From assembly GCA_051884915.1 (NCBI GenBank), contig JBJEWF010000087.1:30595-94594 (forward strand): a DNA stretch of 64,000 bases, written 5' to 3'. Below, one piece after another: positions 9,044 to 61,392 of the stretch. The position numbers and the translations under genes were made by a program. How positions within the stretch are numbered: position 1 is the first letter of the stretch; the number at the start of each line of letters is the position of its first letter. The notes under the pieces are model-generated. The model was not told the origin of the DNA and made no database searches. It was given only the letters and a program-made list of their open reading frames with translations. The DNA is from Kiritimatiellia bacterium (GTDB lineage Bacteria > Verrucomicrobiota > Kiritimatiellia > RFP12 > UBA1067).

Positions 9044-9075
9044 TTCTTAACCTCGTTTCGTTGAAAACGGCGCGC

Positions 9076-9104
9076 ATTCTACCATATCGGCGGACTGGAT
9101 GCAA
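9076..9104 (-). promoter_or_regulatory. Sigma70-type promoter TTGCAT-17-(TGG)TAGAAT for rpsP-rplS
   Basis: Minus strand reads TTGCATccagtccgccgataTGGTAGAATgcgcgcc...GAGGTtaagaaATG. The leader is about 25 nt and contains an SD. Confidence 0.75.
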
Positions 9105-9166
9105 GCAGAAACAAGATAAACCGAAATATCGGACGGGCGCCGCCCGAATTGCCGCACGGCAGCCCG

Positions 9167-10771: not shown

Positions 10772-10797
10772 GGCTTTCCCTTTGAACCGACTCGGGA

Positions 10798-11730: not shown

Positions 11731-11731
11731 G

Positions 11732-12340: not shown

Positions 12341-12356
12341 CGATCCCCGTTTCGCC

Positions 12357-21406: not shown

Positions 21407-21418
21407 TGCCGCCTCCTT

Positions 21419-26732: not shown

Positions 26733-27935
26733 CTATTTCGCGGGGGAGCCGGCGGCGTCCCCTTCCCGCTCCCGCAGAACCGCCCGCCAATAGGCCGCCA
26801 TCACGTGTGCCACGCGGCAGAAACCGGCGGAATCCAGCTTCTGGCGCCGCACACTTGCCGCCAGAAACGCCTCCAGGTCCGCCGGTTCGGCGACGACGGG
26901 CGCCATGAGCTGCGTAAGCGCCAGTTCTCCGTCCCAGCACATGCCATAAGGCGGCCGGACGGGATTCGCGGCCTTCATCCGCAAACGGGCCTGATGCGCG
27001 AAAAGGCCCAGAGCCTCGCGGATCTTCGCGCGGCGCGCCGGATTCCGCTCATGCGCGAGAATCGGCTCGAAGGACGCGTTCGCCTGGTAGAGCGAATAGC
27101 ACGGCATGCGGCCCGCGATCTGCCGCGGCGGCATCTCCTTGATTTTCAACGTCCGCTCCAGGGCTTCGTCGATGTACGTTTCGTAAAGTTCGCGCCAATG
27201 CGCATTCCCCGTTGCCATGTACGCCGCGCAGTAGATCATCGGCAGGCGCGCCGCCTCGTGCGGCCACACGTCGGGCCCCCACATCGTGCAGATGCCCCGA
27301 TAATCCTTTTCCGGGCTGTCCGCCAGACCAAAATTCCACCCGTGGGCTTCGGTCACGCGCGCTTCCATGAAGGCGGCGACCTCGTCCACGCGCCGCCGGT
27401 ACTCGTCGACGATTGCGGGGTCGGCCAGATCCTTGGCCGTGGCGTAGCGCCAAAGGCCGTGGACCCAATGCGTGTACTGGTCGCGGCTCGAAAGCGAAAC
27501 CGTGGTTCTGCCGTCCGAACAGAAACCGCGGCAGACAAATCCCCGGTAGCCGTGGAGGACCGCGAGGTTCAGCAGTCCCTTCGCGACCTTCGCGGCGTCA
27601 TCTTTCACGGCCGCGTCATGCGTGACCAGCCATTTGTCCACCAGCCCGGAAAGCGCCGTGCCGCAATTCAGCGGTGCGTCGCCCACGCCAGGAGGTCCCC
27701 ACCCGCCCGGACGCCCCTGGTACATGCGGTAGAGGCCGTTCGTCGCGTCCGCGGGCGGCGACGACCTGCGCGTGTCGCATCCGTCGACGACGCCGGTCCG
27801 CGGATTCCAGGTCGTCATCGCCTTCGCCCATCCGGCGTCGACGAGCGGGCGCAACGCCTCCTGGGGAAGCGCCGCCGGCGCCGATGCGCAAGCGAGAAGG
27901 GCGAGAAGCAGTCCGTTCATGGTCGCGTTCTTCAT
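26733..27935 (-). CDS. Secreted hypothetical protein, possibly an (alpha/alpha)6-barrel carbohydrate-active enzyme
   Basis: 400 aa from ATG 27935 (MKNATMNGLLLALLACASAPAALPQ, signal peptide; GGAAAGGA upstream). The body is helical and W/Y-rich. I recognise no diagnostic motif. Confidence 0.5.
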   Translation of the reverse strand: MKNATMNGLLLALLACASAPAALPQEALRPLVDAGWAKAMTTWNPRTGVVDGCDTRRSSPPADATNGLYRMYQGRPGGWGPPGVGDAPLNCGTALSGLVDKWLVTHDAAVKDDAAKVAKGLLNLAVLHGYRGFVCRGFCSDGRTTVSLSSRDQYTHWVHGLWRYATAKDLADPAIVDEYRRRVDEVAAFMEARVTEAHGWNFGLADSPEKDYRGICTMWGPDVWPHEAARLPMIYCAAYMATGNAHWRELYETYIDEALERTLKIKEMPPRQIAGRMPCYSLYQANASFEPILAHERNPARRAKIREALGLFAHQARLRMKAANPVRPPYGMCWDGELALTQLMAPVVAEPADLEAFLAASVRRQKLDSAGFCRVAHVMAAYWRAVLREREGDAAGSPAK

Positions 27936-28035
27936 AAGACGTCCTTTCCTTTGGAACGATCCGCGCCCGGCCGCCCGCAGATCCCGAAGAGGCCGGCGTC
28001 GCCGCCACCCCCGACCGCGGCGCGCCGCGCATGAG

Positions 28036-28060
28036 CGCAAAACCGCCGGCCGGCCGGCGA
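28036..28060 (-). terminator. Rho-independent terminator after the beta-helix gene
   Basis: A 16-nt perfect GC palindrome CGCCGGCCGGCCGGCG (28044-28059) is followed on the minus strand by GUUUUG. Confidence 0.55.
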
Positions 28061-28187
28061 CCGGAACAGGCCCGAACGGTCCCTTGCCCCGCGGACGGGC
28101 CTGCTCCGGACATCGCCGTCCACGCGCGCGGCGTTGTGCGGAACGGCAGCGGAGAATCGCAAACCCGTGTCCATCCTTCGCCCGGCT

Positions 28188-33058: not shown

Positions 33059-34372
33059 CTACTTCAGCAGCGCGGCGACCGCGGCGCCGATCATCGGGGT
33101 GTCGTCCGGACAGACCGTCAGCGCGTACGAGATGTTGCGCGGCCCAAGCATCGCGTCAAGTTCCTTCTTGACGATTTCGGGGAAGGACACGACGCGCGTC
33201 TTGTAGTAGGTCGAGCCGTCGATGCAGAGGCAGATCGGCGCGGCCGGATCCGTGCCGCCGCCGGTCTTCACGGAGAAGGCGGCCAGATGGACGGCCGTGA
33301 GAATCGCCGCGCGCTCGAAAACCGGCGTAGCGAGACGGCGGGCCGTGGCGGCATCCTGCTCGTCCACGAACACCTTGTCGAGCGGGTTGACGTTGCCGCT
33401 GTCAAACTTGGCGCAGAAATTGTCGAGATCGTAGCTTTCGAGCGTGCCGAGGGACTGGACGGCCTTCGCGGCGGCGTCGGAGAAGTAGCCGGCCTTCGCG
33501 GCGGCCTTGAACACTTCCAGGCCGATCTTGCCGAGGTAGGCGCCCGCGATCATCTTCTCGAAGCGCTGGCAGCCGCAATCGGCCGTCTTTTTGTCCATCG
33601 CCTCGTCGAACGCGGACGGTTCGATCTTGTTGAAGCCGCCGGATTCGGTATTGATCGCCATCGCGCCCGCCGGCGGATTGGCGAGTTTCGGGATGCGGTC
33701 GTTCCGCTCGATGTAGGCCACGTTCGTGCCCGAGCCGAGGATGAAACCGAGATAGGCGGAAAACTTCTGGCCCGGCTTTTCCGTCGCCTTGCCGGCGAGA
33801 AGCGTGGCCACGGTGTCGTTGACGACCATGACCTTGGAGGGCTTCGGATCGAGACGCTTGGCGACTTCCGCGCCCACCCACTGGCCGACGATCTCGGGCG
33901 CCTTGATCTCCTTCGTCCACATGAGCAGCTTGGCGTCGCCCGCCGCCGAGGCCTCGGCCGGATAGGAGAAGCAGAAACCGATGGCCGGATCCTTCGCAAA
34001 AGGCGCGCAACGCTTCACGTGACCCGTCAGCACCGCGTAGAAATCTTCCTGCGCGACATGGCTCTTCGCGCCCGGCATCTCGCCTTTTTCCTTGTTCTCG
34101 ATCCTGATCGCCGAACCGTCGGACGGAATCGTCACCGTGGCGCCGCGCAGATTCGTGCCGCCCGCATCGAGCACGGTCACCGGCGTGTCCTTCTTCACGT
34201 CGCCGTAGGGCGAGGTATAGGTCGGGATCATCCGCAAGGAGGAGGGAAGACCGGCCAGTCCCGCCTCCATCTCCTTCTGGAATGAAGCGATCAGACCCGC
34301 GCGATCGAGCGTGCGGGTCTTCAGCCCATTGGCTTCAAGAAATTCTTCAGGTGTCTGTGAGGGTTTCTGCAT
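33059..34372 (-). CDS. Hexokinase-family (eukaryotic-type) sugar kinase
   Basis: 437 aa from ATG 34372. LDAGGTNLRG, GFCFSYP, NDTVATLL, GFILGSGTNVAY and FEKMIAGAYLG follow the order of the hexokinase_1/hexokinase_2 motifs. Confidence 0.8.
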   Translation of the reverse strand: MQKPSQTPEEFLEANGLKTRTLDRAGLIASFQKEMEAGLAGLPSSLRMIPTYTSPYGDVKKDTPVTVLDAGGTNLRGATVTIPSDGSAIRIENKEKGEMPGAKSHVAQEDFYAVLTGHVKRCAPFAKDPAIGFCFSYPAEASAAGDAKLLMWTKEIKAPEIVGQWVGAEVAKRLDPKPSKVMVVNDTVATLLAGKATEKPGQKFSAYLGFILGSGTNVAYIERNDRIPKLANPPAGAMAINTESGGFNKIEPSAFDEAMDKKTADCGCQRFEKMIAGAYLGKIGLEVFKAAAKAGYFSDAAAKAVQSLGTLESYDLDNFCAKFDSGNVNPLDKVFVDEQDAATARRLATPVFERAAILTAVHLAAFSVKTGGGTDPAAPICLCIDGSTYYKTRVVSFPEIVKKELDAMLGPRNISYALTVCPDDTPMIGAAVAALLK

Positions 34373-34398
34373 AAGAGTCCTTTCGTAATGATGGTAAA

Positions 34399-34407
34399 AG
34401 AATAACA
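34399..34407 (-). promoter_or_regulatory. Possible extended -10 element TGTTATTCT upstream of the hexokinase gene
   Basis: Minus strand reads gtgtaTGTTATTCTtttaccatcattacgAAAGGActcttATG. The hexamer is weaker than at the other sites. Confidence 0.35.
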
Positions 34408-34495
34408 TACACCGCAGACTTCCGCAAGAAGCCCCGGCGCGATTTCGCAAAGTCGGCGCGGGCGGACGACGGCGGGCGCGCAGCCCGCGGAACGG

Positions 34496-35924: not shown

Positions 35925-36884
35925 TCAAAGCGCCTTGACGCCGAAGAGCCAGAGCGCAAGGCCGACAAGCAGCGGCATCGTCACAATCGAGAGCAGCGTC
36001 GTGGCGGACACGAGGCCGACCGAGAGGGAGACGTCGCGCGCGTAGCGCACGGCGAACATCGACGTGAGCGCCGCCGCCGGCGCAGACGCCGCCGTGACAA
36101 TCGCCACCGCCATCTTGGGGTCGAAGGAGAAACCCGCGCGATGGAGGCCGTAGACGATGGCCAGAAAGACGGCCGGCACGACGATCAGGCGCATCCCGCC
36201 GGCCACGTAGGCCCTGGGCGAGCGGACCACGGGCCCGAACTTGGCCTGCGCCAGATTGTAGCCGATAATGATCATCGCCAGCGGCGTGTTCAGGTCCGCC
36301 ATCATCTTGACGGGCGTTCCCGCGAACGACGGCAGCTTCCAGGAGAACAGGAAGAGCGGAAGCCCGAGGGCGACGCCGATCGATCCCGGGTTCAGGAACA
36401 GCGTGCGGAGTTGCACGTCCTTCAGGGACCCGCAGAACTGCACGAGCGCCCAGCTCCAGAAAAGAAGATTGAAGACGACCACGTAGGCGACGCCGTAGAA
36501 CACGCCGTCGCTGCCCAGCAGCGCATGCTCCAGCGGGATTCCCATGAAACCCGCGTTGGAAAACACGATTGAGCATTTCAGGACGCACCGCTGCCGAATA
36601 TCCGCATGCCGAATGAACAGATGCGCCGCCAGCATCCCCAGGGCCGGCGAAAGCACCGAAAAGGCAAACGCCCATCCCAGACCCGCCAGCAGACGCGGCT
36701 CGAACGGACGCTCCTGGAACGAATGGACGATCAGGCAGGGCGTGACGATCAGGATGAGCACATTGACCATGCCCTTGACGGATGCGTCGGTCACCAGTTT
36801 CGTCCTGTTGCAGACGAAACCGACGGACATCAAGGCGAAGAGAATGCCCACTTGCCGGGCAACGACGGAAAAACTTTCAAGCAT
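35925..36884 (-). CDS. AEC (auxin efflux carrier) family transporter
   Basis: 319 aa with about 10 TM segments. The N-terminus VGILFALMSVGFVCNRTKLV...LILIVTPCLIVHSF is typical of AEC/YfdV-like permeases. It lies only 12 nt downstream of the MMPL fusion gene. Confidence 0.75.
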   Translation of the reverse strand: MLESFSVVARQVGILFALMSVGFVCNRTKLVTDASVKGMVNVLILIVTPCLIVHSFQERPFEPRLLAGLGWAFAFSVLSPALGMLAAHLFIRHADIRQRCVLKCSIVFSNAGFMGIPLEHALLGSDGVFYGVAYVVVFNLLFWSWALVQFCGSLKDVQLRTLFLNPGSIGVALGLPLFLFSWKLPSFAGTPVKMMADLNTPLAMIIIGYNLAQAKFGPVVRSPRAYVAGGMRLIVVPAVFLAIVYGLHRAGFSFDPKMAVAIVTAASAPAAALTSMFAVRYARDVSLSVGLVSATTLLSIVTMPLLVGLALWLFGVKAL

Positions 36885-36896
36885 GGGAACGGAGGG

Positions 36897-39800
36897 TCAG
36901 GATGGAGGGACGGACGGAAAAAACGAATAGAACTGGTACCACTGCCCGGGATGGGCGCGCGTTTCGGTTTCGAGGAAAGAGACGTATTGCGCGAGCAGCG
37001 CCGAAAGCCGGAGGCCGGCGGACGGGTCCGGCGGGGAGAATTGGCGGACGTGGACTTCATAGGAATTCCAGCCCGTGCGGACGCACGTCGTGAAGAAGAC
37101 GGGGGCCTCCATCAGCTTGGCGAAGACGAAAACGCCCTTGGGCCAACGGCAGGGACGGCCGAGAAATTCCCGCCGCAGCGTCTTGTCCGATCCGGCGCTC
37201 ACGCGATCGCCCGCCATCAGAACGAGTTCGCCGCGGGCAATCGCCTCCTGCATCGCCACGGCCGTCTCCACGCCAATGTCCTCGACCGCATGAAGCGTCA
37301 GCTTCGCGGCGTCGAAATGCTTCATGAAAAAACCGGTGAAAACGGCATCGTGCCCCATCTGCTGGAATGCGTGGACATGGGGAACGTCCCCGTGCGGCCG
37401 CCCCGCCGCCAGAGCCGGCAGGACTTCGACCGTTCCCACGTGCGTCGAAATCAGAAAGGCGCCCTTCTTCATCGCGACCAGATTCTGAAAGGCCCGCCCG
37501 CCCTCGTCAAGGCGCACCGTCATCTTCGGCAGATTCTTCTTCAAGGTGCAGGCGTCCGTCTTGTCGGCCAGCGACCAGGCGAATCCGAGGAGGTGGGCGA
37601 ACAGGCGGCCGTGGCCGGGCGACCGCCGGCCCTTCCAGAGAACCGCGTAGAATTCCCGCAATGCGGCACGGGCCGGCCCGGCAAATGGATAGATGAACGC
37701 CATCACGGGGACGCAGAGGATCTTCAGCGCGGTCTTGCCCAGTCCGGCGTAGACGCACCAGAGGAGGGCAAGGCGGAGGGTGCCGGCGCTTTGCTCCCGC
37801 TGGTCGTGCCAACGGAGTGCCGAAGGCTGGCGGCCGGGCGGCGGAGAGGAGGCCGGAAGCGACAGAAGATAGGCGAACGCGAGACCGAGGGCGAAGGTGA
37901 TCCCCATGTCGCGCGTGACGGGGAAGGCGGTGAAGGACAGCATGCCGAGACCGGCGAACGACGTGAGAAAAGAATAAAAGACCGTGCGGCGCGTCTCTGG
38001 CGCGGGGCGGGTCCGGTTGAAGATCACATAGTCCAGACTCAGCCCGACGAGCACGAAGAAGCAGAGCAGCGTGAAGAAGGTCACGGGAATCCGCAGCCAG
38101 CCGAGCATGGCCGCCGTGCCGGCAAAAGCCAGGGCAACCGGCATGACCATCTTGACGAACTGCCGGCGGAAGAGGACGGCCAGCAGAAGCCCCAACGCGA
38201 GAAGCGATCCGCCGAGAAGTTTGCAGGTCTGGCGGAAATACGCCGCAAACAGCGTTTCGAGCGCCGCGCCCGGTTCGACCACGACAATCGCGGGGTCGGC
38301 CGGAACGTAGTCCCGCGCGCAGGGGACGATCAGCCCCTGTTCGGCGCGAAAGGCCTTCACGAGACGCCGCAGGCTTTCGTCTTCCAGTTTCTCCGCGTCG
38401 AGAAAAGATTCCGGTTCCCAGACGACTTCCAGTCCCGTCCGCGCCCGATAGGCCGCGCCCTCCGCACGGGAGAGCTTGCGAACCAGCTCCGCGTTCTCGC
38501 GCTGCCGTTTCAACGACGGAACGATTCCCGACAATCCCTTCAGGCCCGCCGCCTCCTCCCGTTCCAGCGCCTCCTGCAGCGTCTTCCCCCGCACATACGC
38601 AAAGCGCGTGGACAGCGCGGGATTCAACCCGGCCAGCAGGGTCTCTCCGCGGGCCAGATAGGGCGTGGGACGATAAAAAGCCGCAGGCGCGGAACTGGCC
38701 GAGAGGGCGTGAAGCCCCGCCAGAACCAACCCGCCCAGCAGCGCCCACGCGCCCGCCGCCACGCCACGCGGCAGACGGCGGACCCGCGGACGCGGAACCG
38801 CCCGCCACGACGCGTCCGGCCGCGACATTCCGCGCGGAGGTCCGCCTGCGGCGAGGAACACGCTCGCGTAGGCCGTGAGCAGGCCGGCCGAAGCGAAGAG
38901 CGCCATCTCGCGCAACACGGGGACGGCCGCGGCGAACAGCGGCGCGAAACAGGCCACCGTGGTCAGGAACGAATTCGTGAGCGGCCGGACGATGTTGCGC
39001 GCACCGCCCGCGGCACGCGCATGGTAGACATAATCGACCGAAAGGCCGATCAGCGACGTGCCGAAGACAAACGTCAGGACATGCGCTTCGGGGTAAACAA
39101 GCAGCAGAACGGCCGTTGCGACCAGAAAGGCCGAACCAATCGAGAACAGCAGGCCGGGAACGAACCGCAGAGACCGGAAGAGGGCCCATCCGAGCAGCAG
39201 CACCAGACCTGTCGAGACAAGTGAAAGCACGTTGATTTCCCGCTGCGCCCGGTCCGCCGTCGCCACCGCATGGAAGAGCGGTCCGCAGCACCAGACTTTT
39301 CCATCGTGGGTCCCGTTGCGCCTCTGCATGGCATGCATCCACGCGACGAGACGCGTTTCGCCCACGCGCCGGACGGCGTCGGAATCCAGCGTCAGAAGCA
39401 AGTAGTGGCGCCCGTCCTTCTCGCGGACGGGATACCCGTCTTTCAGCGTCCAGCCGTCGGCCAGGTCCGCCTGCAGGGACATCGCATAGTCCGTCGCCAG
39501 GAGAAAGGGGTCGCGTTTGACCGGAAACAACGGCGGCATCGGACCATACAGGCGCGCCAGCGAATCCTCGGCCACCTCCCGGAACTTCCCCTCAAGCAAC
39601 AGCCTGCGGGTTTCCGGCGCCAGCAGCCCCGACTTGCGCGCGTCCAGATAGCGAAGCGTCGCCTTGAAATCCAGGCGAACCGCCTGCTGCAGATTGGAGG
39701 AGACGCCGGCCGCCAGTTCCCGGACGGCGGCGGCGTCCGCCCCCTCGATCAGCACATGGCCCCGATTGGCGGAACCGGCCGCCACCTCCCGGATCAGGGG

Positions 39801-39938
39801 CGCGGAATCGGTCGCAACGAGGCTGAACAGATCCGAGCGGACGGCAAGTCCACGATTGATCCGAACCCCCAGAACGGCAAGGGCCGCCAGAAGCAGACAG
39901 CCGAATGCGCACCGCCCCCTGGCCAACCAGGACGTCAC
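36897..39938 (-). CDS. Fusion protein: MMPL/RND-type predicted exporter (N-terminal ~710 aa) + LpxL/HtrB-type lipid acyltransferase (C-terminal ~300 aa)
   Basis: 1013 aa. Two 5-6-TM bundles are separated by soluble domains, with the paired motifs GTSLIGLSVDYVYH and VLVGLSLDYVIF. The C-terminal part carries the H(x)4E acyltransferase motif (STHVGTVEVL) and the MAGDRV region. Confidence 0.7.
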   Translation of the reverse strand: MTSWLARGRCAFGCLLLAALAVLGVRINRGLAVRSDLFSLVATDSAPLIREVAAGSANRGHVLIEGADAAAVRELAAGVSSNLQQAVRLDFKATLRYLDARKSGLLAPETRRLLLEGKFREVAEDSLARLYGPMPPLFPVKRDPFLLATDYAMSLQADLADGWTLKDGYPVREKDGRHYLLLTLDSDAVRRVGETRLVAWMHAMQRRNGTHDGKVWCCGPLFHAVATADRAQREINVLSLVSTGLVLLLGWALFRSLRFVPGLLFSIGSAFLVATAVLLLVYPEAHVLTFVFGTSLIGLSVDYVYHARAAGGARNIVRPLTNSFLTTVACFAPLFAAAVPVLREMALFASAGLLTAYASVFLAAGGPPRGMSRPDASWRAVPRPRVRRLPRGVAAGAWALLGGLVLAGLHALSASSAPAAFYRPTPYLARGETLLAGLNPALSTRFAYVRGKTLQEALEREEAAGLKGLSGIVPSLKRQRENAELVRKLSRAEGAAYRARTGLEVVWEPESFLDAEKLEDESLRRLVKAFRAEQGLIVPCARDYVPADPAIVVVEPGAALETLFAAYFRQTCKLLGGSLLALGLLLAVLFRRQFVKMVMPVALAFAGTAAMLGWLRIPVTFFTLLCFFVLVGLSLDYVIFNRTRPAPETRRTVFYSFLTSFAGLGMLSFTAFPVTRDMGITFALGLAFAYLLSLPASSPPPGRQPSALRWHDQREQSAGTLRLALLWCVYAGLGKTALKILCVPVMAFIYPFAGPARAALREFYAVLWKGRRSPGHGRLFAHLLGFAWSLADKTDACTLKKNLPKMTVRLDEGGRAFQNLVAMKKGAFLISTHVGTVEVLPALAAGRPHGDVPHVHAFQQMGHDAVFTGFFMKHFDAAKLTLHAVEDIGVETAVAMQEAIARGELVLMAGDRVSAGSDKTLRREFLGRPCRWPKGVFVFAKLMEAPVFFTTCVRTGWNSYEVHVRQFSPPDPSAGLRLSALLAQYVSFLETETRAHPGQWYQFYSFFPSVPPS

Positions 39939-40396
39939 GGCGCCGTCCCCGCCGCGTCGGTCCGCTTCAAGTCGATTTCAAGACGGTCGCCGTTCTTGAA
40001 GAAGACGCGGACGCGTTCAGGGAACTTCTTCTCCGGAGCGACTTTCACTTCGCGGACGAAGTCCCCGATCTCCCGGATCTCAAAAATCTTTTCCAGGGAG
40101 GAGACGTCGACGTTCAACGCCCGCGTCGTGGATTTGCCGCGGACCGTCATCGTGTAGTTCGTCGGCGTGGCGAGGAACGTCGAAGGCACCGGCTGAAGCG
40201 TCTTGAACTCGAAGCTTCTGCCCTTCTCGAAACGGAACGTGCCCGAAGACGCGAGCGCGACGTCCACGTCCGCCAGAATCTTCCGCTGGACAAAGACGCC
40301 TTCGGCAAACTGCGGCAGATCGTCCGGCGCGACGGCGGCGGGAAAAGCCGTCCCGCCCAGGAACAGACTCAAAAGCACAAGATGCCGCTGGAGCAT
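39935..40396 (-). CDS. LolA-like outer-membrane lipoprotein-carrier-fold protein
   Basis: 153 aa from ATG 40396 (MLQRHLVLLSLFLGGTAF, signal peptide). FVQRKIL...LASSGTFRFEKGRSFEFKTLQP resembles the LolA-like proteins of aryl-polyene-type clusters. Its stop overlaps the start of the downstream gene. Confidence 0.6.
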   Translation of the reverse strand: MLQRHLVLLSLFLGGTAFPAAVAPDDLPQFAEGVFVQRKILADVDVALASSGTFRFEKGRSFEFKTLQPVPSTFLATPTNYTMTVRGKSTTRALNVDVSSLEKIFEIREIGDFVREVKVAPEKKFPERVRVFFKNGDRLEIDLKRTDAAGTAP

Positions 40397-42066
40397 GCCA
40401 GATCTCCCTTCCGATAGTCGTAGGCCCATTCGCGGTCGCTCTTGCGGACGAGCGAAAACCGGATCGTCTCGCCCGGCACGATCGCGCGGGTGAACTTCAT
40501 TTTCCTGACCGCCGTCAGAACGATCTGCCGCCGGATCGCCCGTTCCGCGAAGCGATGGGCCAGCCCCAGCTGCACGACGCCCGGCAGAACGGCAACCCCC
40601 GGGAAATGCCCCTTGAAGTAGGGCGCGTCGGGATCGAACACGAAATCGCCCGTCCAGGACGTTGCGGAAACCTTGACGCCCGAAACAAAGGGTTCCGCCA
40701 GATTGGTCGCGAAAAGCCGAACGAGCTCCTCCATCAGGACCTTCCCCTGGGCGTTGCGCGGCAGCTCATGGACAAACCGGTATTTCTTCGGGACGGTCCC
40801 CTTCGGGAAGATCGGCATCAGCCGACTCCGCAGGGACAGCGCCAGCCGCCGTTTCGACGCGCCCGAACCGACGGCCCCGTTCCAGACGACGACGGCGCCC
40901 AGACAGGTTCCATGCGGGCTTGCCAGCGGACACAGGGCCGCCTCTTTGATTCCGGGGATCTTGGCCATTTCCGCCTCCATCTCCGGCAGCAGTACGCGCC
41001 GTTCGGCCACTTTCACGAGGCGGTCGCGCCGGCCGAGCAACCGGAAATGGCGCCCATCCCCGGAGCAGACCGCGCCGTCGCCCATGACGAAGCCCCGCCG
41101 AAACGAAAACGGGGAATCCACGACCAGCCGTCCGTCCGCGTTCGTGGAAACGCGGACGGGATCGAAGACCGTCCACAATTCGTCCCCCCCGTCCTGGCGG
41201 CGCCATGCCACGCCGCCCGTCTCCGTACTGCCGAAGATCTCGCGCGGCGCAATCCCGAAGACCCGTTTTGTCGCCGCCGAAACCGCGGCCGTCAGCAAGG
41301 CGCCCGAAGTCGTGATCTCCACGCAGTTCCGCGGAACGTCGTACATCTCCGCATAGGCGGTGAACCGTTCCAGAAAACTGGGCGTCGTGACCAGGAAGAC
41401 CCGCGCGGCGGCTTTCATTTTGGCGAGGAGGGATTCCGGCGTCAGGATGACTTCGGGATCGACGGGGCATCCGGCCGCCTGCGGCAGGAGGACGCGCCAC
41501 AAGGTTCCGTACATGTGCTGCGGCTCGACCGTCGAGAGGAACAGCGGACGCGCGGCAAGCTGCGGCTGCAGAACGCGACGATGGTAGGCGACCTCTTTCG
41601 CCAGCGTGTCGAACGTCTTGACGATCGATTTCGGTTTTGCAGTGGAGCCGGACGTGCAGAACGTCCGCGCGAAACGGCGGCGGCGGTAGCGCCATTCCAG
41701 CCCGGCAAATCCCCATAGGACCGCGTATGACAACGCGCAGTTCCAGGCGAACCAGACCCACCGCGGCGCGAACACGGTCGCAAGCGCCACGCCGCCGTTC
41801 AGGAGAAGGGCCGCGCACCAGATCGCGGTCAACCGCCGGCAATAGCGCGGCGCCTCCTGGGGCAGAATGCCCGGCGGAATCTTTTCCGCCAGCTCTTCGC
41901 ACAGCGTCTTCCGGCGCAAAAGGGAAAGGCCGAAACCCGATGCGACCGCCACGCTCATCACGACCGGATAGTATGCCACGAAGACAAAGCGCCTGAAAAC
42001 AAGCGCGGCGGCGATGCACGCCGCCAGCACAACGAGGGATGCGAATTTTGGAAGCGCCCGCACCAT
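40369..42066 (-). CDS. Triple fusion: ~125-aa polytopic membrane domain + N-terminally truncated AMP-dependent synthetase/ligase + FabA/FabZ-type hot-dog dehydratase
   Basis: 565 aa. Hydrophobic segments span aa 1-125. Adenylation motifs are TSGSTAKPK (aa 138-146), GSTETGG and LPRNAQGKV. The C-terminal FKGHFPGVAVLPGVVQ is the HFPxxPxxPG dehydratase motif. Confidence 0.75.
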   Translation of the reverse strand: MVRALPKFASLVVLAACIAAALVFRRFVFVAYYPVVMSVAVASGFGLSLLRRKTLCEELAEKIPPGILPQEAPRYCRRLTAIWCAALLLNGGVALATVFAPRWVWFAWNCALSYAVLWGFAGLEWRYRRRRFARTFCTSGSTAKPKSIVKTFDTLAKEVAYHRRVLQPQLAARPLFLSTVEPQHMYGTLWRVLLPQAAGCPVDPEVILTPESLLAKMKAAARVFLVTTPSFLERFTAYAEMYDVPRNCVEITTSGALLTAAVSAATKRVFGIAPREIFGSTETGGVAWRRQDGGDELWTVFDPVRVSTNADGRLVVDSPFSFRRGFVMGDGAVCSGDGRHFRLLGRRDRLVKVAERRVLLPEMEAEMAKIPGIKEAALCPLASPHGTCLGAVVVWNGAVGSGASKRRLALSLRSRLMPIFPKGTVPKKYRFVHELPRNAQGKVLMEELVRLFATNLAEPFVSGVKVSATSWTGDFVFDPDAPYFKGHFPGVAVLPGVVQLGLAHRFAERAIRRQIVLTAVRKMKFTRAIVPGETIRFSLVRKSDREWAYDYRKGDLACSSGILCF

Positions 42067-42314
42067 CAGTTTTCGTTCACGAGCTTCGAGACCGCCTTCG
42101 TCACGTCGGCCAGCGTCCGAATCTGGCGGAAGTCCTCGGGATTGACTTTCTTCTTCGTTTCCTGCTGAAGGCGCACGATCAGGTCGACCGCGTCAATCGA
42201 ATCCAAATCAAGTTCGGTGAACAGATTCGTTTCGGGCTTCAACTGCTCTGGCTTGCACTCGAACTCGGCAACGAGAATGTCTTTGATGGTCTTTTCGATT
42301 TCAGCATCGGTCAT
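42066..42314 (-). CDS. Acyl carrier protein (second of two)
   Basis: 82 aa with the phosphopantetheine site LDLDSIDAVDL. Start and stop overlap the neighbouring genes (ATGA at 42311-42314; TGATG at 42064-42068). Confidence 0.88.
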   Translation of the reverse strand: MTDAEIEKTIKDILVAEFECKPEQLKPETNLFTELDLDSIDAVDLIVRLQQETKKKVNPEDFRQIRTLADVTKAVSKLVNEN

Positions 42315-42583
42315 GATTGGGCTTTCTGTTGGGTTTCCACATAGTCGGCCAGCGTCTGGACGGAATGGAAGATTTTCCTGTTGTCGGCGGGGTTCGAGGA
42401 GAACGTGACGCCAAAGGCCTTCTTGACCGCCATGCCCAGTTCAAGCGCGTCAATCGAGTCGAGGCCAAGCCCCTCCCCGAACAGCGGAACCTCCGTCTCA
42501 ATGTCCGCAGCCGTCAGATCCTCCAGATCCAGAGCCGAGACAATCGTCTCCTTCAGCTTGCTTTCAATTTCTTCGCGTGTCAT
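42311..42583 (-). CDS. Acyl carrier protein (first of two)
   Basis: 90 aa with the phosphopantetheine site LGLDSIDALEL. Confidence 0.88.
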   Translation of the reverse strand: MTREEIESKLKETIVSALDLEDLTAADIETEVPLFGEGLGLDSIDALELGMAVKKAFGVTFSSNPADNRKIFHSVQTLADYVETQQKAQS

Positions 42584-42591
42584 TTGCCGCT

Positions 42592-42600
42592 ATTTTACCA
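42592..42600 (-). promoter_or_regulatory. Extended -10 element TGGTAAAAT, 8 nt upstream of the first ACP ATG (candidate leaderless promoter)
   Basis: Minus strand reads acagtaTGGTAAAATagcggcaaATG. There is no SD and the -35 is poor. Confidence 0.55.
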
Positions 42601-42953
42601 TACTGTCCGTTCGTTGGGCGGAGACAATGAGATTTTTCCGCAAGAAATCCAAAAACTTCGCCATCTCCCACGCCATTCTTCAATTTAGCTGGCACATGAA
42701 AACTGAAACGAACCCGTTTCGGAACCCGTCTCCCGCAAGGCGGGGAACGGCTGGCGGAACCGTCCCGCGCCGCGGAAACCGACGCGCCGCGATCCCCTAC
42801 TCGCGCGGAAACGCCAGCCGTTCGGACCGGACTTCCCGTCGCCCATGCCCCGGCCCCATCCCACCGGCACAAGCCCCGCGCCCGAACGCGGCGCAGACCG
42901 GGCTTCCTACCGGCGCAGAATCTTCCGTTCGCTGCCGAACGGAGAATCGCCGA

Positions 42954-43037
42954 TGGTGGGCGCGAAGGGACTCGAACCCCCACTCCTCGCGGAACTGGAA
43001 CCTAAATCCAGCGTGTCTGCCATTTCACCACGCGCCC
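42954..43037 (-). tRNA. tRNA-Leu (anticodon UAG)
   Basis: An 84-nt class II tRNA folded by hand. Acceptor GGGCGCG/CGCGCCC, anticodon stem CTGGA/TCCAG with loop TTTAGGT, a long variable arm, a TTCGAGT T-loop, and an encoded CCA. Confidence 0.88.
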
Positions 43038-43046: not shown

Positions 43047-43080
43047 AAAAACGAATCTGCCGAACCCGATCATGCGATTC
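43047..43080 (-). terminator. Hairpin plus U-run after the esterase gene, 10 nt upstream of tRNA-Leu
   Basis: Minus-strand RNA reads GAAUCGC-(13-nt loop)-GCAGAUUC (7 bp plus one bulge), followed by GUUUUUC. The hairpin overlaps the stop codon. Confidence 0.4.
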
Positions 43081-43984
43081 AGGGAAGCGACTTGAAATTG
43101 CGCGTCAGCCATTTGGCGGCCAGCGCTTCCCAGCCGTCAACGTCCGTTCCATGCGGACGGATGCCGTAGCCGTGCCCCCCTTTCGGGAAGAGATGCATTT
43201 CGGCCATCACGCCGGCGTACTTCAGCGCGGCGTAGTAGCCGAGGGCATTTTCGACATGGGCGAAATCGTCCTCCGTCTGGACGATGAACGCCGGGGGCGT
43301 CGTCTCGTCCACGGGGAAATCGCCCCGCAGCGTCAGCGGCAGCGTCTTCTCCTTGTTCTCGCCGACCACGAGCATCCACGGATAGATGGGAAGCGAGAAG
43401 TCCGGACGGCAGGAAAACGCATCCGCCGCGTCGACCGCCGCATACGAACGGTGCCGATGGCAGGTCGACACGCGGCAGGCCAGGTTGGCGCCCGCCGAAA
43501 ACCCCATGATGCCCAGGCGCTTTGGATCGATCTTCCACTCGTCGGCCCTGGCGCGAATCAGCGACAAGGCCCGCTGGGCGTCCATCAGCGCCGCGTCGCG
43601 CTGGCCGGGACAACGATACTTCAGGACAAACGCGGAGAAGCCGATCGCGTTCAGCGCCTCGGCGATTTCCACGCCCTCGTGATTGTAGGCCAGAATCGAA
43701 TAGCCGCCGCCCGGACACACGAGAACGGCCGGGCAGACGCCCGATCCCCCGGCGGGGAAGAAGGCGAGTTCGGGCACGTTGACGTCCGTAAGGCGCACGA
43801 TGCCGCCATTCGTGTCCTTGACGGCAAACGCGCCCGTTCCCTTCTGGACGGGGATCCGGCCCTGCGGCCACACGGCAATCTTCACGCCGCGCGCAAGCGC
43901 CGCATCCGCCAGCGCGCGGTCGATTTCCGCATGCACGCCCAACAAGCCCATGCACAGAACTCCCCAAACGACAACCTTGTTCAT
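43079..43984 (-). CDS. Secreted alpha/beta-hydrolase esterase (carbohydrate-esterase or lipase-like)
   Basis: PGGGYS oxyanion region, nucleophile elbow GFSAGA, and a late D/H pair (QTEDD...GGHGY). I moved the start to ATG 43984 (MNKVVVWGVLCMGLLGVHA, signal peptide), because the track ATG 43993 overlaps the -10 hexamer. Confidence 0.75.
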   Translation of the reverse strand: MNKVVVWGVLCMGLLGVHAEIDRALADAALARGVKIAVWPQGRIPVQKGTGAFAVKDTNGGIVRLTDVNVPELAFFPAGGSGVCPAVLVCPGGGYSILAYNHEGVEIAEALNAIGFSAFVLKYRCPGQRDAALMDAQRALSLIRARADEWKIDPKRLGIMGFSAGANLACRVSTCHRHRSYAAVDAADAFSCRPDFSLPIYPWMLVVGENKEKTLPLTLRGDFPVDETTPPAFIVQTEDDFAHVENALGYYAALKYAGVMAEMHLFPKGGHGYGIRPHGTDVDGWEALAAKWLTRNFKSLP

Positions 43985-43991
43985 GGTCGCC

Positions 43992-44000
43992 ATTATACCA
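43992..44000 (-). promoter_or_regulatory. Extended -10 element TGGTATAAT, 7 nt upstream of the esterase ATG (candidate leaderless promoter)
   Basis: Minus strand reads ggtttaTGGTATAATggcgaccATGaac. Confidence 0.6.
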
Positions 44001-44012
44001 TAAACCGCCGCG

Positions 44013-44861
44013 CTACTTCCGGGCGTTGTATTCGTCCAGCTGTTTTTTTGCGCAGTTCGTCGTCACCGTCTGCGCGCCGCGCTCGAACGCCAGCAGCGAG
44101 GTCTTCAGATCGTCGACCGTCCACACGTGGAACTCGTAGCCGGCGTCCCTGATTTCCTTGATGAACGCCGCCGTAATGTACTTGGGATCGAAGTGGCAGT
44201 CGACGCCGTCGGCCTTCGTCTCCTTCAAAGCCGCAATGACCTCCTGGGCGGAAATGCCGACCGGCCGGTTCCTCGGTCCGCGGGCCGAGAGAGTCAGCCA
44301 GAAGACCTTGTATTCGGGCATCTGCTCCTTGAGCGCCTTGCAACTTTCCTTGTTGAAGGAGATGAACAGCGTGTTCTTCGGCGTGGCCTTCGTCTGCTTC
44401 GCGAAGATCCGTCTGATATACGGCACGATTTCGGGTCCCGGCTTCACCTCCACGTAGATCTGGCGGCCGTCGACCGCCAGCTGAAGCAATTCCTCCAGGA
44501 GGGCGGGACGCGTCGGCGAATATTTCGAGCCTTTCCACTTGCCCCAGCCGCCCACGTCGACCTTCGAGATCTCCGTCTCCCAGTTCGCGGCCGCACAGTC
44601 CTTCGTGCAGGCGCCCGCCGTCGTCCGCGTCAGATTGCCGTCATGAAACGTGAAGACCCTCTTGTCCGCCGAAAGATAGACGTCGCATTCGAAGCCAAAA
44701 CCGCGCTCAACCGCCATCCGGTAGGCAGGAAGCGTATTTTCCGGCGCATCGTGCGATTCGCCGCGATGCGCGATGAACGTGTCGAAAGCCGGTTGCGCCG
44801 CCACTGCGGAGCCTGCGACGCAAACGGCCACCGCCGCCGCGAGTCCTGCCGTCAACTTCAT
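44013..44861 (-). CDS. Secreted glycerophosphodiester phosphodiesterase (GDPD family)
   Basis: FIAHRGESHDAPENTLPAYRMAVERGFGFECDV is the GDPD signature (HRG...ENT...E.D). I moved the start to ATG 44861 (MKLTAGLAAAVAVCVAGSAVA, signal peptide). Confidence 0.88.
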   Translation of the reverse strand: MKLTAGLAAAVAVCVAGSAVAAQPAFDTFIAHRGESHDAPENTLPAYRMAVERGFGFECDVYLSADKRVFTFHDGNLTRTTAGACTKDCAAANWETEISKVDVGGWGKWKGSKYSPTRPALLEELLQLAVDGRQIYVEVKPGPEIVPYIRRIFAKQTKATPKNTLFISFNKESCKALKEQMPEYKVFWLTLSARGPRNRPVGISAQEVIAALKETKADGVDCHFDPKYITAAFIKEIRDAGYEFHVWTVDDLKTSLLAFERGAQTVTTNCAKKQLDEYNARK

Positions 44862-44882
44862 GTCCGATTCCTTTCTTTGGAT

Positions 44883-44895
44883 TTGCCAGTGGCAA
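44883..44895. promoter_or_regulatory. 6-1-6 palindrome TTGCCA-g-TGGCAA in the GDPD 5' leader (candidate operator)
   Basis: A perfect inverted repeat lying 22-34 nt upstream of ATG 44861. Confidence 0.35.
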
Positions 44896-44961
44896 CACGC
44901 GACACGGGGAATCCGCGCGAATGGCAACCGCGGACATCCCCGGCGAAACGAAACGGCCTAC

Positions 44962-45081: not shown

Positions 45082-46599
45082 CTATTTGAACAGTCCCAGC
45101 CGGAGAATCGGCAGCACCCGCGTCGCGAGCGTCGCATCGAGATCGAAGAGGGCCACTCCCGCAAAGCCCGCCTGCCGGGAAAAGTTGATCTGGTCGACGA
45201 CCTGGCGCGGCGTCAGCGTGGACTCGTTCGCCGTAACGCCGATGCCCCCGATGACATGGCGCGCCTGGGCGCGCGTCAATCCCTGCTTCTGGACCAATGC
45301 GGCCAGCCGCGGCGTATCGGGGACGTAGTTCATCGGAACGACGTAGTCGACAAGGCCGGCGTCGATCCACGCCTTCCAGTCCTGCCCCACCGACGTGACG
45401 CAGGACGGATAGTTCCCCAGAACGGCCGCCGACAGAATCGCCCCGGGGCGGACCGCGCGCACGCGCTGCCGCACGGCCTCGACAAACGTCGTGATGGCGC
45501 GGTCGGGACGCTTCGGCTTGCCGGTCGCCTTTTCGTACCAGCGGACAAAGTCGAGGTGGATGCCCGACACGGCATAGTTGCCCGCCAGCTCGTCGATCGT
45601 CGCCAGGAGATACTGGCGCAGATCGGCGTGGGTCGGATTCAGATAATCCGTCACGCGCCCCTGCACGTCCTTCAGCAGCCATCCCTTTTTCGCGAAAGCC
45701 GCCTTCTTCGCCGGCGAGGCCCGTGTCGCATTGAAGCACAGAACCCAGGCGTGGACGCGGATTCCCGTTCCGCGCGCCGCCGCAAGGCAGGACGACAGCT
45801 GGTCGCCCGCGGCCGTCAGCGTCGCGGACGCCGGAAGGACCTTCGAGGGATAGTGGCCGAAGCCCGCCCCGGCGACGTTGACGAACAGATCCGTGATGCG
45901 GTTGGCCTGGAGCATCCGCATCGTTCGCGGCCAGTCGCCCGGATAAAGGCCCTCTCCCGAATGGTCCCAGACCGCGTGGATTTCCCCGGGACGCGGCGTC
46001 TGCTTCGCGCCATACGCGCGATCCGCCGCCAGACGCGTCTGCCGTTTCGCCTCCCAGGCCGCCGCGTCCCAGACCCCCGGCACCGCCTGTTCCGCCAAGG
46101 CCAGCAGCTGCCGCGCCCGTTCCTCCTCCGTCTCGTCGCTCGAAAAATAGTTGCCCAGCCACCAGCCGCCCTTGAAGGGCCGGACCCGAACCTTCCCGCG
46201 CCGGCGGGAAACGCCCTCGACGGCAACGCCCAGGCGCGACGCCAGGTCGGACGAATAGGATTGCAGAACCGCGACCTTGCCGCCGCGGGCGCGGAACCGG
46301 TCGAGTGCGGCCATGTGCGCCGGAGACGGCTTCTGCATCGTCACCAGATAGGCCAGACGGCGGCCGGACAGAACCGCGTCCAGCGCCTTGTCGGCGGACA
46401 GATCGGCTTTCACGCCGCCCGACGCCAGGCCGTCGACGACGTACCTGGCCCGCGAGGCCGCATAGGCCCGATCGGCCGGCGCGCAGGATTCGACGGCCTG
46501 GATGACGGCAATGGGACTGCGCGCGACAGGACGGGCCCCGCCGAGAAGACAGCACAGGAGAGCGGCGAGCGCGCGCCAAACGGACACCCGCCCCCTCAC
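45082..46599 (-). CDS. Glycosyl-hydrolase-like 10 (GHL10 / YngK-type) family protein with a signal peptide
   Basis: 505 aa. The central part reads ...ITDLFVNVAGAGFGHYPSKVLP...GIRVHAWVLCFN...DYLNPTHADLRQYLLATIDELAGNYAVSGIHLDFVRW, which is typical of the GHL10/UPF0748 TIM barrel. The GTG start overlaps the lpxK stop (GTGA at 46596-46599). Confidence 0.7.
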   Translation of the reverse strand: MRGRVSVWRALAALLCCLLGGARPVARSPIAVIQAVESCAPADRAYAASRARYVVDGLASGGVKADLSADKALDAVLSGRRLAYLVTMQKPSPAHMAALDRFRARGGKVAVLQSYSSDLASRLGVAVEGVSRRRGKVRVRPFKGGWWLGNYFSSDETEEERARQLLALAEQAVPGVWDAAAWEAKRQTRLAADRAYGAKQTPRPGEIHAVWDHSGEGLYPGDWPRTMRMLQANRITDLFVNVAGAGFGHYPSKVLPASATLTAAGDQLSSCLAAARGTGIRVHAWVLCFNATRASPAKKAAFAKKGWLLKDVQGRVTDYLNPTHADLRQYLLATIDELAGNYAVSGIHLDFVRWYEKATGKPKRPDRAITTFVEAVRQRVRAVRPGAILSAAVLGNYPSCVTSVGQDWKAWIDAGLVDYVVPMNYVPDTPRLAALVQKQGLTRAQARHVIGGIGVTANESTLTPRQVVDQINFSRQAGFAGVALFDLDATLATRVLPILRLGLFK

Positions 46600-47810
46600 G
46601 CCGGCGCATCTCCCGTTTTCACCGGCGCGGCGGCGCTTCGCGGACGCACATTGCAGATGTGGTTGACCGCCGTGGCAAAATTCTCCGCCCCCTTCAGGAT
46701 CTCGATGTCCACGCGCAGATAGTAGCAGGGAACCGGCGTTGTCTCGAATCGCGGGAAACGGACGGCGTCCTTTTCCGTCGTAATCAGCGCATCGGCATGC
46801 AAGTCGGCCGTCCTGTTGAGCGCGTAGAGGATTTCCGACGAGTCATACCGGTGGTGATCGGCATATCGTTCGCACCAGATCACCCGCGCGCCCAATTTGC
46901 GCAGCGAGTCCTCGAATCCCTGCGGGACGGCAATGCCCGACAGCGTCGCAAGCGTCTTTCCCTTCAGCCATGTCAGCGGAAGCTCTTCGCGCGACCAGAC
47001 GTCCTTCAGCAGGCGGGGCGCATGCCGGCATTCGATGATCTCGGCCTTCCTGTTGTATTCCCGGATCCGCCTGACGACCTCTTCCGTCTGGCCGTCGGAC
47101 TTCGTGATGAAGATGAAGTCCGCGCGGCCGATGTGCCTGGCCGGCTCGCGCAGGACGCCGCGCGGAAGCATGTGGCCGTTGCCGAACGGATTGGTCTTGT
47201 CCACAAGCACGACCTCCAGCGAATGCTTCAGCCGCTGGTACTGGAATCCGTCGTCCAGAATCAGCGTGTCGCACCCGAAACGCGAAATCGCATATCGGCC
47301 GGCCTTCACCCGGTTGCGGTCCACGACGACGCACACCCCCGGCAGATTGGAGGCCAGCATGTAGGGCTCATCGCCGCCCGTCGCCGCGTCGAGGTGGATG
47401 CGCGTGCCGTCGCTGACGACGAGCGGCGGCTCGATCATGTCCGAGAACATCCGCTGCCACCACGGCTTTTCCTTGCGCCGGTAGCCGCGCGACAGGATCG
47501 CCACTTTCCGGCCGGCCGCCGCCAGTTCCCGGGCGAATTTCTCGGTGACGGGGGTTTTCCCCGTTCCGCCCGCCGTCACGTTGCCGATCGAAATGACCTG
47601 GCAGCCCAGCGGGAAGCGCCGCAAAACCCCCACCTTGTAGAAGAAATACCGGACCGCGACCGCCGCGCAGAAAAGATACGAGATCCCCTTCAGGAAATTC
47701 AGGAGCGCCCGGGCGCCGCCATGCGCCTTTTTGTCGGCGCCCGGCTGCTGGATGAGTTTGACGAGCGAATGCTCCAACCGCTCGATGTAGCTGACTTTCT
47801 GTTTCTGCAA
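46596..47810 (-). CDS. lpxK: Tetraacyldisaccharide 4'-kinase
   Basis: [20 protein letters not shown]...AILSRGY is the LpxK P-loop signature. The track start is a TTG codon (plus-strand caa at 47808-47810). Confidence 0.88.
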
Positions 47811-56498: not shown

Positions 56499-56519
56499 AA
56501 CAACCCTCGTGTCCGTTGC

Positions 56520-58193: not shown

Positions 58194-58219
58194 CTTCTTT
58201 GCTTTCCTGCGTCTCCGAT

Positions 58220-58228
58220 AATCTATCA
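58220..58228 (-). promoter_or_regulatory. Extended -10 element TGATAGATT upstream of the acyl-CoA ligase gene
   Basis: Minus strand reads gggataTGATAGATTatcggagacgcAGGAAAGcaaagaagATG. Confidence 0.45.
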
Positions 58229-58263
58229 TATCCCGTGCCACGCATCAAGCGCGGCAATCGCTA

Positions 58264-59202: not shown

Positions 59203-59205
59203 GCG

Positions 59206-61359: not shown

Positions 61360-61392
61360 GAACATCCTCCCCTCACTCCGGTCGCCGGCCTC

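Follow-up and report, generated by a model that had tools for sequence, protein, structure and literature searches.

A ketosynthase-less, gene-fused variant of the aryl-polyene loading, attachment and export genes in a Kiritimatiellia bacterium

A 64 kb stretch of DNA from the metagenome-assembled genome (MAG) of a gut Kiritimatiellia bacterium, here called the window and used for all positions unless another locus is named, contains on its minus strand five overlapping, co-directional genes (36897-42583). They encode two acyl carrier proteins (ACPs), a fusion of a membrane domain, a ligase and a dehydratase, a LolA-like protein, and a fusion of an exporter and an acyltransferase. This module is a variant of the known aryl-polyene (APE) system that lacks a ketosynthase (KS) and carries gene fusions. 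We consider it roughly an even bet (probability of about 0.5) that the locus supplies one half, for loading, attachment and export, of a reduced APE-like pathway spread over two loci, a reading that is built on sequence comparisons. Our literature search retrieved no account of KS-less APE modules or of APE clusters in Kiritimatiellia.

The gene order, strand, coordinates and overlapping junctions proposed in an earlier, sequence-only reading of this DNA were reproduced when the open reading frames (ORFs) were read again, and so were its flanks, a tRNA-Leu gene upstream and genes for AEC-family and MatE transporters downstream. From ACP1 to the exporter fusion, the four junctions overlap by 4, 1, 28 and 4 nt (Table 1). 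The same reading had stated that the order ACP, ACP, membrane protein, ligase and dehydratase, followed by LolA and MMPL, is that of APE clusters, and direct comparison confirmed this: the APE clusters of Shewanella and Burkholderia have the same relative gene order as the window module. In Shewanella decolorationis, genes for a chain-length factor (CLF), a PlsC-type acyltransferase, ACP, ACP, ApeG, ApeH and ApeI are followed by those for a fusion of a family 2 glycosyltransferase (GT2) with an LpxL-type acyltransferase, a tyrosine ammonia-lyase, a thioesterase, LolA_3, MMPL, a halogenase, DUF3261 and KS. Relative to the APE or aryl-polyene-lipid (APEL) clusters of E. coli CFT073, Xenorhabdus doucetiae and Acinetobacter baumannii (apeA-R), the window has homologues of ApeE, ApeF, ApeG, ApeH, ApeI, ApeL, ApeM and the acyltransferase part of ApeJ; it is without ApeO/ApeR, ApeC, ApeQ, ApeP, ApeD, ApeK, ApeB, ApeN and the glycosyltransferase half of ApeJ. 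It also differs from these clusters in that ApeG, ApeH and ApeI make up one polypeptide, ApeM is fused to the acyltransferase, and ApeH is shortened at its N-terminus. To our knowledge, the roles of ApeG, ApeI, ApeJ, ApeL and ApeM are still largely conjectural.

The tandem ACP pair of APE clusters (ApeE and ApeF) is present in the window. ACP1 passes the NCBIfam model NF006617 with 92.6 bits (curated cut-off 70) and has 52% identity to the first Shewanella ACP. Its phosphopantetheine site is Ser43 in a GLDS motif, and it shares the LED motif, the GEG motif and an extended loop with the starter carrier ApeE, to which a 2025 nuclear magnetic resonance study assigned these features (PMC12624758). 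ACP2 passes NF003757 with 102.1 bits (curated cut-off 65) and is 52% identical to the second ACP of the Shewanella cluster; in known systems, ApeF is the malonyl or extender carrier that feeds the KS. Functions of homologues were taken here and below from PMC12624758, bioRxiv 10.1101/2020.12.19.423268 and PMC8253772.

The 565-residue fusion protein, which is identical to NCBI MGN0853478.1 (AMP-binding protein, Kiritimatiellia bacterium), gave an AlphaFold2 model with a mean predicted local distance difference test (pLDDT) score of 82. Four N-terminal transmembrane (TM) helices are predicted in this model (residues 5-24, 27-48, 72-99 and 102-131). The membrane domain that they form matches Shewanella ApeG (tblastn, 3.5e-12), and its polar residues C56, C76, R77, N90, E124 and R128 are invariant in the family alignment. 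The ligase core matches Pfam AMP-binding and AMP-binding_C as well as NCBIfam TIGR02372, with NF006386 as a weak match in the NCBIfam scan, and a Foldseek search with the fusion model retrieved ANL enzymes at an E-value of 5.5e-20 over about 350 columns. The ANL motifs A3-A10 are present and invariant in the alignment of homologues (TSGST..PK, EIFGSTETGG, GD, GRxDRxVK and PRNAQGK, the lysine of the last included). This core begins exactly at the P-loop TSGSTAKPK, directly after the four-helix domain, and its sequence matches in the PDB cover the chains only from residues 130-190 onward. The ligase therefore lacks its usual N-terminal part: the TM domain stands where a typical ANL enzyme has its first ~130-190 residues, and Shewanella ApeH retains about 140 N-terminal residues more than the window ligase. 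On this point the sequence-only reading needs correction, as its AMP-ligase domain is short of roughly 140-170 residues at the N-terminus. The truncated form recurs in all relatives of both clades described below, is conserved, and is modelled with confidence. Membrane and ligase domains are homologous to, and collinear with, the adjacent G and H genes of Shewanella and Burkholderia. The hot-dog domain matches Pfam PF22818 (ApeI-like), has 3esi and 6qsr as its best PDB sequence matches, aligns with canonical ApeI and shares its GHF...LPGVxQ motif. Aryl acids, for example 4-hydroxybenzoate, are substrates of all tested ApeH enzymes. Grammbitter et al. reportedly described ApeI in 2019 in a heterocomplex with ApeP.

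Carrier and exporter also correspond to an APE gene pair, ApeL and ApeM, by hhalign for the former and by tblastn, Foldseek and PDB sequence searches for the latter. The 153-residue protein has no Pfam match of its own. Its family aligns with the ApeL/LolA_3 family at 98.7% probability (E-value of 4.4e-16), the Shewanella member of the ApeL family matches Pfam LolA_3, and the orthologue at locus L171 has a weak precomputed LolA match. The protein carries a signal peptide at its N-terminus and lacks a lipobox cysteine; its start is the choice of the gene caller, with an alternative ATG at 40429. Matches of the exporter part include the MMPL genes of APE clusters (tblastn, ~1e-16 to 1e-31), partial matches to NCBIfam HAE3 and HpnN, and, as the only PDB sequence match, 5khn (HpnN); Pfam MMPL scored 16 bits, under its cut-off. 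The exporter model consists of two TM bundles and two periplasmic domains (pLDDT ~70-90), its top Foldseek matches are HpnN and MmpL3/4/5 (E-values from 1e-15 to 1e-9), and the twelve-TM core with two periplasmic domains is that of the resistance-nodulation-division (RND)/MMPL/HpnN-type family. Several of the nearest solved folds to the 1013-residue model are those of MmpL4/5 complexes with AcpM, an acyl carrier protein, and by analogy these structures are a precedent for ACP docking on this type of exporter.

The C-terminal domain of the exporter fusion matches the GT2+Lip_A_acyltrans fusion of Shewanella, a homologue of ApeJ (tblastn, 1.75e-18, residues 305-575); NCBIfam PRK06553 matched with an E-value of 4e-4, under its cut-off. 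In the HX4E motif (STHxGxxE), H833 and E838 are invariant in 13 homologues, as are many other residues, and a precomputed PF03279 match exists for one homologue (P0013). Motif and family match together place the domain in the LpxL/LpxM-type family (Lip_A_acyltrans, PF03279). From the ApeJ/ApeD attachment enzymes of APE clusters, the window has the LpxL-type half of ApeJ only, fused to ApeM. Sequence, profile and fold comparisons have thus upheld the MMPL, LolA-like and acyltransferase assignments made from the letters of the DNA, and they specify the acyltransferase as a homologue of the C-terminal part of ApeJ.

Table 1. Features of the module and its upstream region, in window positions
Feature	Position	Strand	Size or remark
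ACP1, ApeE-type starter acyl carrier protein	42311..42583	-	90 aa
ACP2, ApeF-type acyl carrier protein	42066..42314	-	82 aa
ApeG-ApeH-ApeI fusion protein	40369..42066	-	565 aa
ApeG-like membrane domain	41674..42066	-	aa 1-131 of the 565-aa fusion
ApeH-like adenylate-forming (ANL) ligase core	40702..41673	-	aa 132-455 of the 565-aa fusion
ApeI-like hot-dog dehydratase domain	40369..40701	-	aa 456-565 of the 565-aa fusion, and stop codon
ApeL/LolA-like periplasmic carrier	39935..40396	-	153 aa
Exporter-acyltransferase fusion gene	36897..39938	-	1013 aa
ApeM-like RND/MMPL lipid exporter part	37725..39938	-	aa 1-738 of the 1013-aa fusion
LpxL-type acyltransferase domain	36897..37724	-	aa 739-1013; cytoplasmic C-terminus of the exporter
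tRNA-Leu	42954..43037		upstream of the module
Intergenic region between tRNA-Leu and ACP1	42584..42953	.	370 nt; presumed operon promoter region

Genes for building an acyl chain are missing around the module. Three methods were applied to the window: Pfam scans of likely coding ORFs of at least ~200 residues, tblastn with the Shewanella APE-cluster proteins and with FabF and FabG, and custom profile hidden Markov models (HMMs) of related KS1, KS2, CLF, ApeP, ketoreductase (KR) and PlsC proteins, run on the six-frame translation. They found no KS, CLF, KR, ApeP, PlsC, GT2, tyrosine ammonia-lyase, thioesterase or DUF3261 gene in the 64 kb; positive-control loci scored 250-610 bits in the HMM search. 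Neither the KS pair (ApeO, ApeR) nor the chain-length factor ApeC of APE clusters is present in the window or in 24 related loci, since the profile HMMs retrieved no KS1, KS2, CLF, ApeP or PlsC from the 444 kb of these 25 loci; for one further module (L177), the precomputed Pfam annotation contains no chain-building gene. The ketoreductase ApeQ is likewise absent from the window, and the ApeI:ApeP pair is represented by the fused ApeI domain with no ApeP. Both tblastn and the profile HMMs agree on the absence of the GT2 half of ApeJ and of a PlsC-type enzyme from the window.

The module has 21 kb on one side and 37 kb on the other that are clear of chain-building genes, and 25 further modules, on contigs of up to 330 kb, are alike in this respect; an assembly artefact or a split at a contig end is therefore rejected. 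Conserved neighbours as suppliers of the missing functions were rejected as well, the flanks being unrelated housekeeping genes (SecDF, fmt, T2SS ATPase, ABC-F, ClpB, RNase HII, ExbB, glycogen phosphorylase and similar). A short-chain dehydrogenase gene follows the exporter in one locus only (L007), and no fab genes were seen near any module. The local lack of ketosynthase, ketoreductase, thioesterase and glycosyltransferase, on which the sequence-only reading had relied, holds for the full 64 kb, with no complete KS/KR set adjoining the module there.

Relatives of the module were collected in a scan of one genome per species, which gave 80 loci. The KS-less modules among them, designated clade A, comprise 21 loci from gut and rumen Kiritimatiellia/Lentisphaerae, with fusion proteins 47-70% identical to that of the window; KS, CLF, ApeP and PlsC are all missing from their flanks of up to 10 kb. 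Another four clade A loci, on contigs of 79-330 kb, are likewise free of chain-building genes, which brings the total to 25 related modules. Clade A is monophyletic (100/100 bootstraps). In metagenomes it accounts for at least 120 protein clusters at 90% identity, some with hundreds of members and one with 942. Its modules vary in content: some have all five genes, others are without the acyltransferase domain or without the exporter, and minimal variants are reduced to ACP1 and the ligase, ACP2 and ApeI having been lost together. The parts are therefore separable. At L014, one of the minimal variants, the ACP1 and membrane-ligase pair is followed by a gene for a secreted protein with two GDSL/SGNH lipase-acylhydrolase domains (9688-12726).

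By sequence, clade A modules show no decay. Catalytic motifs do not vary among homologues with identities of 47-81%, canonically conserved ligase-ApeI columns are kept about as often in clade A (45/66) as in the KS-containing relatives (46/66), and the ratio of ACP to ligase conservation is the same in the KS-less clade as in KS-containing clusters, ACP2 included. Relaxed selection on ACP2 or ApeI, which would be a sign of lost elongation, was looked for and not seen.

The KS-containing relatives form a second group, clade B, from other gut and rumen Kiritimatiellia (L029-L035, L073, L164-L168, L172 and L174), with proteins 28-38% identical to those of the window. Its hosts are closely related to those of clade A (housekeeping proteins 60-71% identical), and its loci have the window's order ACP-ACP-G-HI-LolA-exporter/acyltransferase. 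Clade B has the same truncated ligase, fused to ApeI, and the same exporter-acyltransferase fusion as the window and differs from it in having ApeG as a separate ORF. Both gene fusions of the window module are real and conserved among relatives. In every clade B locus with an exporter fusion, a KS gene directly follows the latter; this KS stands alone in some loci and is continued by ApeP-KR-KS-CLF-PlsC in others.

Clusters of this group can also be split. In MAG JAFPUH01, ACP-ACP-G-HI-LolA is located on contig 22 (L034) and the exporter-acyltransferase fusion with KS on contig 24 (L164); the same two-gene unit of exporter-acyltransferase and KS occurs at L166 and L167. Divergently upstream of this unit lies a gene for a NusG paralogue of 163-167 residues (6533-7024 in L164/L165; also in L166/L167, at 6484-6987 in L166), which shows 78% identity between the two types of clade B genome and might serve as a dedicated antiterminator, as RfaH and LoaP do.

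Candidates for the missing KS came from a metagenome scan with a clade B KS as the query, for which all counts refer to the matches listed. Six contigs (L134, L105, L110, L148, L139/L175 and L144) have an APE-type KS without a nearby ACP, ligase or exporter gene. These six KS, on two loci of at least 12 kb and four shorter contigs, form one clade; their best-scoring model is NF006618, as it is for cluster-linked KS, and their flanking genes resemble Kiritimatiellia genes. ApeP follows the KS in 4/6 (L134, L105, L110 and L148), where the order is a waaA-TPR fusion gene, KS and ApeP (6976-11519 in L134). The order in L139/L175 is an APH-type kinase gene, KS and gyrB (8874-11089), and the KS cluster of the L139 type comprises 104 members, with contigs of up to 271 kb. 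Within flanks of up to 10 kb (10 kb in L134, L139 and L175, the remaining contigs being only 1.4-8 kb long), no KR, CLF, second KS or PlsC gene was found. No close relative of the KS-containing type appeared among the matches listed. A gyrB-like gene is also present just after the KS of the clade B locus L073.

The two protein trees suggest where these KS belong. Clade A, rumen alphaproteobacterial clusters and clade B make up one superclade of the ligase tree (bootstrap 98), and the stand-alone KS clade, alphaproteobacterial clusters and clade B make up one of the KS tree (bootstrap 100). Because the stand-alone KS occupy the place that corresponds to clade A, the simplest pairing would assign them to clade A genomes. 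The minimal variant L014, devoid of ACP2 and ApeI, is consistent with this pairing: its waaA is 66-68% identical to the waaA of L134 and L105, and no KS follows it.

Taken together, these comparisons lead us to view the five translationally coupled genes as a probable reduced derivative of the APE/APEL pathway. Judged by homology, the membrane-anchored ApeH-like domain would adenylate a carboxylic acid and load it onto the ApeE-type ACP1. A single APE-type KS encoded at a second locus, joined in some genomes by ApeP, could then permit limited extension with malonyl-ACP2 and an ApeI:ApeP dehydratase, as the comparison of genomes suggests. The LpxL-type domain, from its homology and topology, would move the ACP-bound acyl group onto a membrane glyco- or phospholipid; it follows the last TM helix of the exporter and therefore should face the cytoplasm, the site of acyl-ACP donors. 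The RND exporter and the signal-peptide-bearing LolA-like protein would, like their homologues, carry the product toward the outer membrane. A classical aryl-polyene lipid is an unlikely product, even with two loci, because KR, CLF, a second KS, PlsC, glycosyltransferase and thioesterase are absent from every KS-less module or stand-alone KS locus examined.

Several observations weigh against a two-locus pathway. APE-type KS are normally linked to their clusters: among the matches listed, 36/38 KS loci of at least 12 kb have ligase or exporter genes nearby and two stand alone, so the unlinked arrangement would be unusual. No stand-alone KS could be tied to this genome or to any other that carries a clade A module (exact look-ups of the window's edge genes were empty). 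Identity of flanking genes, tried as a means of assigning the KS contigs to module carriers, was not discriminating, because the housekeeping proteins of clades A and B are so similar to each other (60-71%). Branching within the two superclades is weakly resolved (71% and 47% bootstrap), and some clade A members do without the acyltransferase or the exporter or are reduced to ACP1 and the ligase. The acyltransferase domain was modelled with low confidence (pLDDT < 50), which makes its structure unusable, and the ligase substrate, the acyl acceptor and the product are putative, proposed from homology.

The sequence-only reading had described the module as a stand-alone system for lipid decoration and export, in which a scavenged, pre-made acid would be loaded, attached to a lipid anchor by the exporter-fused acyltransferase and exported with no extension. 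We regard such a self-contained, KS-free system as a doubtful, if still credible, explanation. The homology to APE genes and the lack of local chain-building genes bear it out in part: no KS, KR or dehydratase partner is found in the 64 kb or beside the 25 related modules, the flanks are unrelated housekeeping genes, variants as small as ACP1 and ligase exist, and the tight linkage of most APE-type KS would make a distant partner exceptional. Comparable logic is known elsewhere, by functional analogy only. In E. coli, Aas/LplT handles pre-made acids by means of an acyl-ACP synthetase bound to the membrane, an acyltransferase and a lipid transporter; its acyltransferase is of PlsC type, its transporter is an inward MFS flippase, and it has no private ACPs, hot-dog domain or LolA-like protein. 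Mycobacterial systems with a fatty acyl-AMP ligase (FAAL), a carrier protein, a Pap acyltransferase and MmpL (MmpL4/5-AcpM included) likewise join an adenylating enzyme, a carrier, an acyltransferase and an MmpL-type RND exporter; they show no close sequence kinship with the module except in the exporter fold, require large polyketide synthases and have no LolA-like carrier. The part left unsupported is the self-sufficiency of the module. It leaves unexplained why ACP2 and ApeI are retained under the same constraint as in KS-containing clusters and are lost jointly in minimal variants, and it has to contend with the split clusters of related genomes and with a stand-alone KS clade, 4/6 with ApeP, in the matching position of the tree.

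If extension takes place, housekeeping fatty acid synthesis (FAS) might perform it, with the starter on ACP1, malonyl on ACP2 by way of FabD, and FabF/FabH, FabG, FabZ and FabI yielding an omega-substituted fatty acyl group for attachment and export. Both ACPs are indeed kept without a local KS, FabD malonylates ApeF in vitro (PMC12624758), and AcpP has been proposed as a partial substitute for ApeF in E. coli (PMC8253772). This route is nevertheless improbable in view of the missing fab genes near the modules, the structural specialisation of ApeE-type ACPs, which are not FAS-like (PMC12624758), and an ApeI domain whose role it would leave unexplained. More improbable again is that a full classical APE set (two KS, CLF, KR, ApeP, PlsC and glycosyltransferase) lies elsewhere in the genome and that ordinary aryl-polyene lipids are made. 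Related Kiritimatiellia do have full clusters (L030-L033, L174), and clusters in this group can split across contigs; against this, 0/21 module-carrying species assemblies gave a second ligase-type locus, though weaker proteobacterial matches were kept, and the stand-alone KS contigs hold only KS with or without ApeP. Decay of an APE remnant to a state without current function, which the stepwise gene loss within clade A (acyltransferase, then exporter, then all but ACP1 and ligase) might recall, is strongly disfavoured: it is at odds with five intact ORFs with overlapping start and stop codons, with the invariant catalytic motifs, with the abundance of clade A in metagenomes, and with a clade conserved as well as its functional relatives.

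A further reading, which we hold to be rather far-fetched, concerns the acceptor. APE-type chemistry might decorate lipid A or Kdo-lipid instead of a phosphoglycolipid: an aryl-primed chain would be made on the private ACPs, extended a few times at most, and transferred by the LpxL-type domain on the exporter to a Kdo-lipid A intermediate or related glycolipid. Weak hints in this direction are the LpxL type of the acyltransferase itself, the presence of lpxK 4-8 kb away from the module in the window, L022, L171 and L177, and the location of the stand-alone KS-ApeP pair directly downstream of the Kdo transferase gene waaA on four contigs.

Whichever product is made, the lineage provides a natural dissection of the APE system. 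More than 20 species from gut and rumen have kept the genes for loading, carrier, attachment and export as a conserved unit free of the polyketide core, and the machinery for attachment and export can thus be maintained separately from that core. The fusions would serve as "Rosetta-stone" evidence, in which fused genes point to cooperation between the separate proteins, and supply testable hypotheses. ApeG would act with the loading ligase and the dehydratase and would not have the role in energising transport that has been proposed for it, and ApeM would be the docking site of the ApeJ-type acyltransferase, with acylation physically coupled to export. The antiSMASH arylpolyene rule is keyed on APE ketosynthases, and such modules and any unlinked KS partners would therefore go unreported in microbiome cluster surveys. 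Should the product prove to be a lipid in the outer membrane of abundant gut Kiritimatiellia, it might affect interaction with the host.

The surroundings of the module offer some additional observations. A consensus scan of the region between tRNA-Leu and ACP1 gave no significant sigma-70 match, for which reason its promoter role is presumed only; a promoter and terminator scan gave no signal above shuffled controls. In three clade A genomes, the exporter fusion has an AEC-family (Mem_trans) gene on its downstream side (window 35925-36884, L171 14319-15275, L177 13121-14077). The start of this gene lies 12-13 nt beyond the fusion gene in the window and L177, and an AAA_14 gene intervenes in L171. 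In clade B, an SBF-like transporter gene follows the KS at L166 and L167. These downstream transporters may reflect lineage synteny or an accessory acid transporter.

The lpxK gene (lipid A 4'-kinase) was located at 46596-47810 in the window, 356-1534 in L022, 19400-20581 in L171 and 19621-20706 in L177. Between module and lpxK, the window has genes for a GDPD phosphodiesterase and an Abhydrolase_3 esterase (43079-44927), and at L174 a GDPD gene is found 3.5 kb beyond the clade B cluster. Full-length AMP-binding genes recur in the vicinity of these loci. One (FadD-like) is encoded 14 kb away from the window module (56520-58241), and its 57%-identical homologue is located ~230 nt downstream of PlsC in the clade B locus L030 (11129-12628). 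Two more, each with a radical-SAM gene after it, lie ~3.5 kb upstream of the modules at L171 (2114-3814) and L177 (1864-3498).

Elsewhere in the window, four ORFs with a coding-like GC content at third codon positions have no Pfam family: 2-2368 (789 aa), 20612-21418 (268 aa), 26733-28187 (484 aa) and 55737-56519 (260 aa). A eukaryote-type hexokinase gene (33059-34450; Pfam Hexokinase_1 and Hexokinase_2) adjoins a galactokinase gene. At 58264-61392, next to an ApbE flavin transferase gene, lies the gene for a 719-residue protein that has multi-haem cytochrome c motifs as well as TM helices at its C-terminus; in other respects the organism resembles a polysaccharide-degrading gut bacterium.

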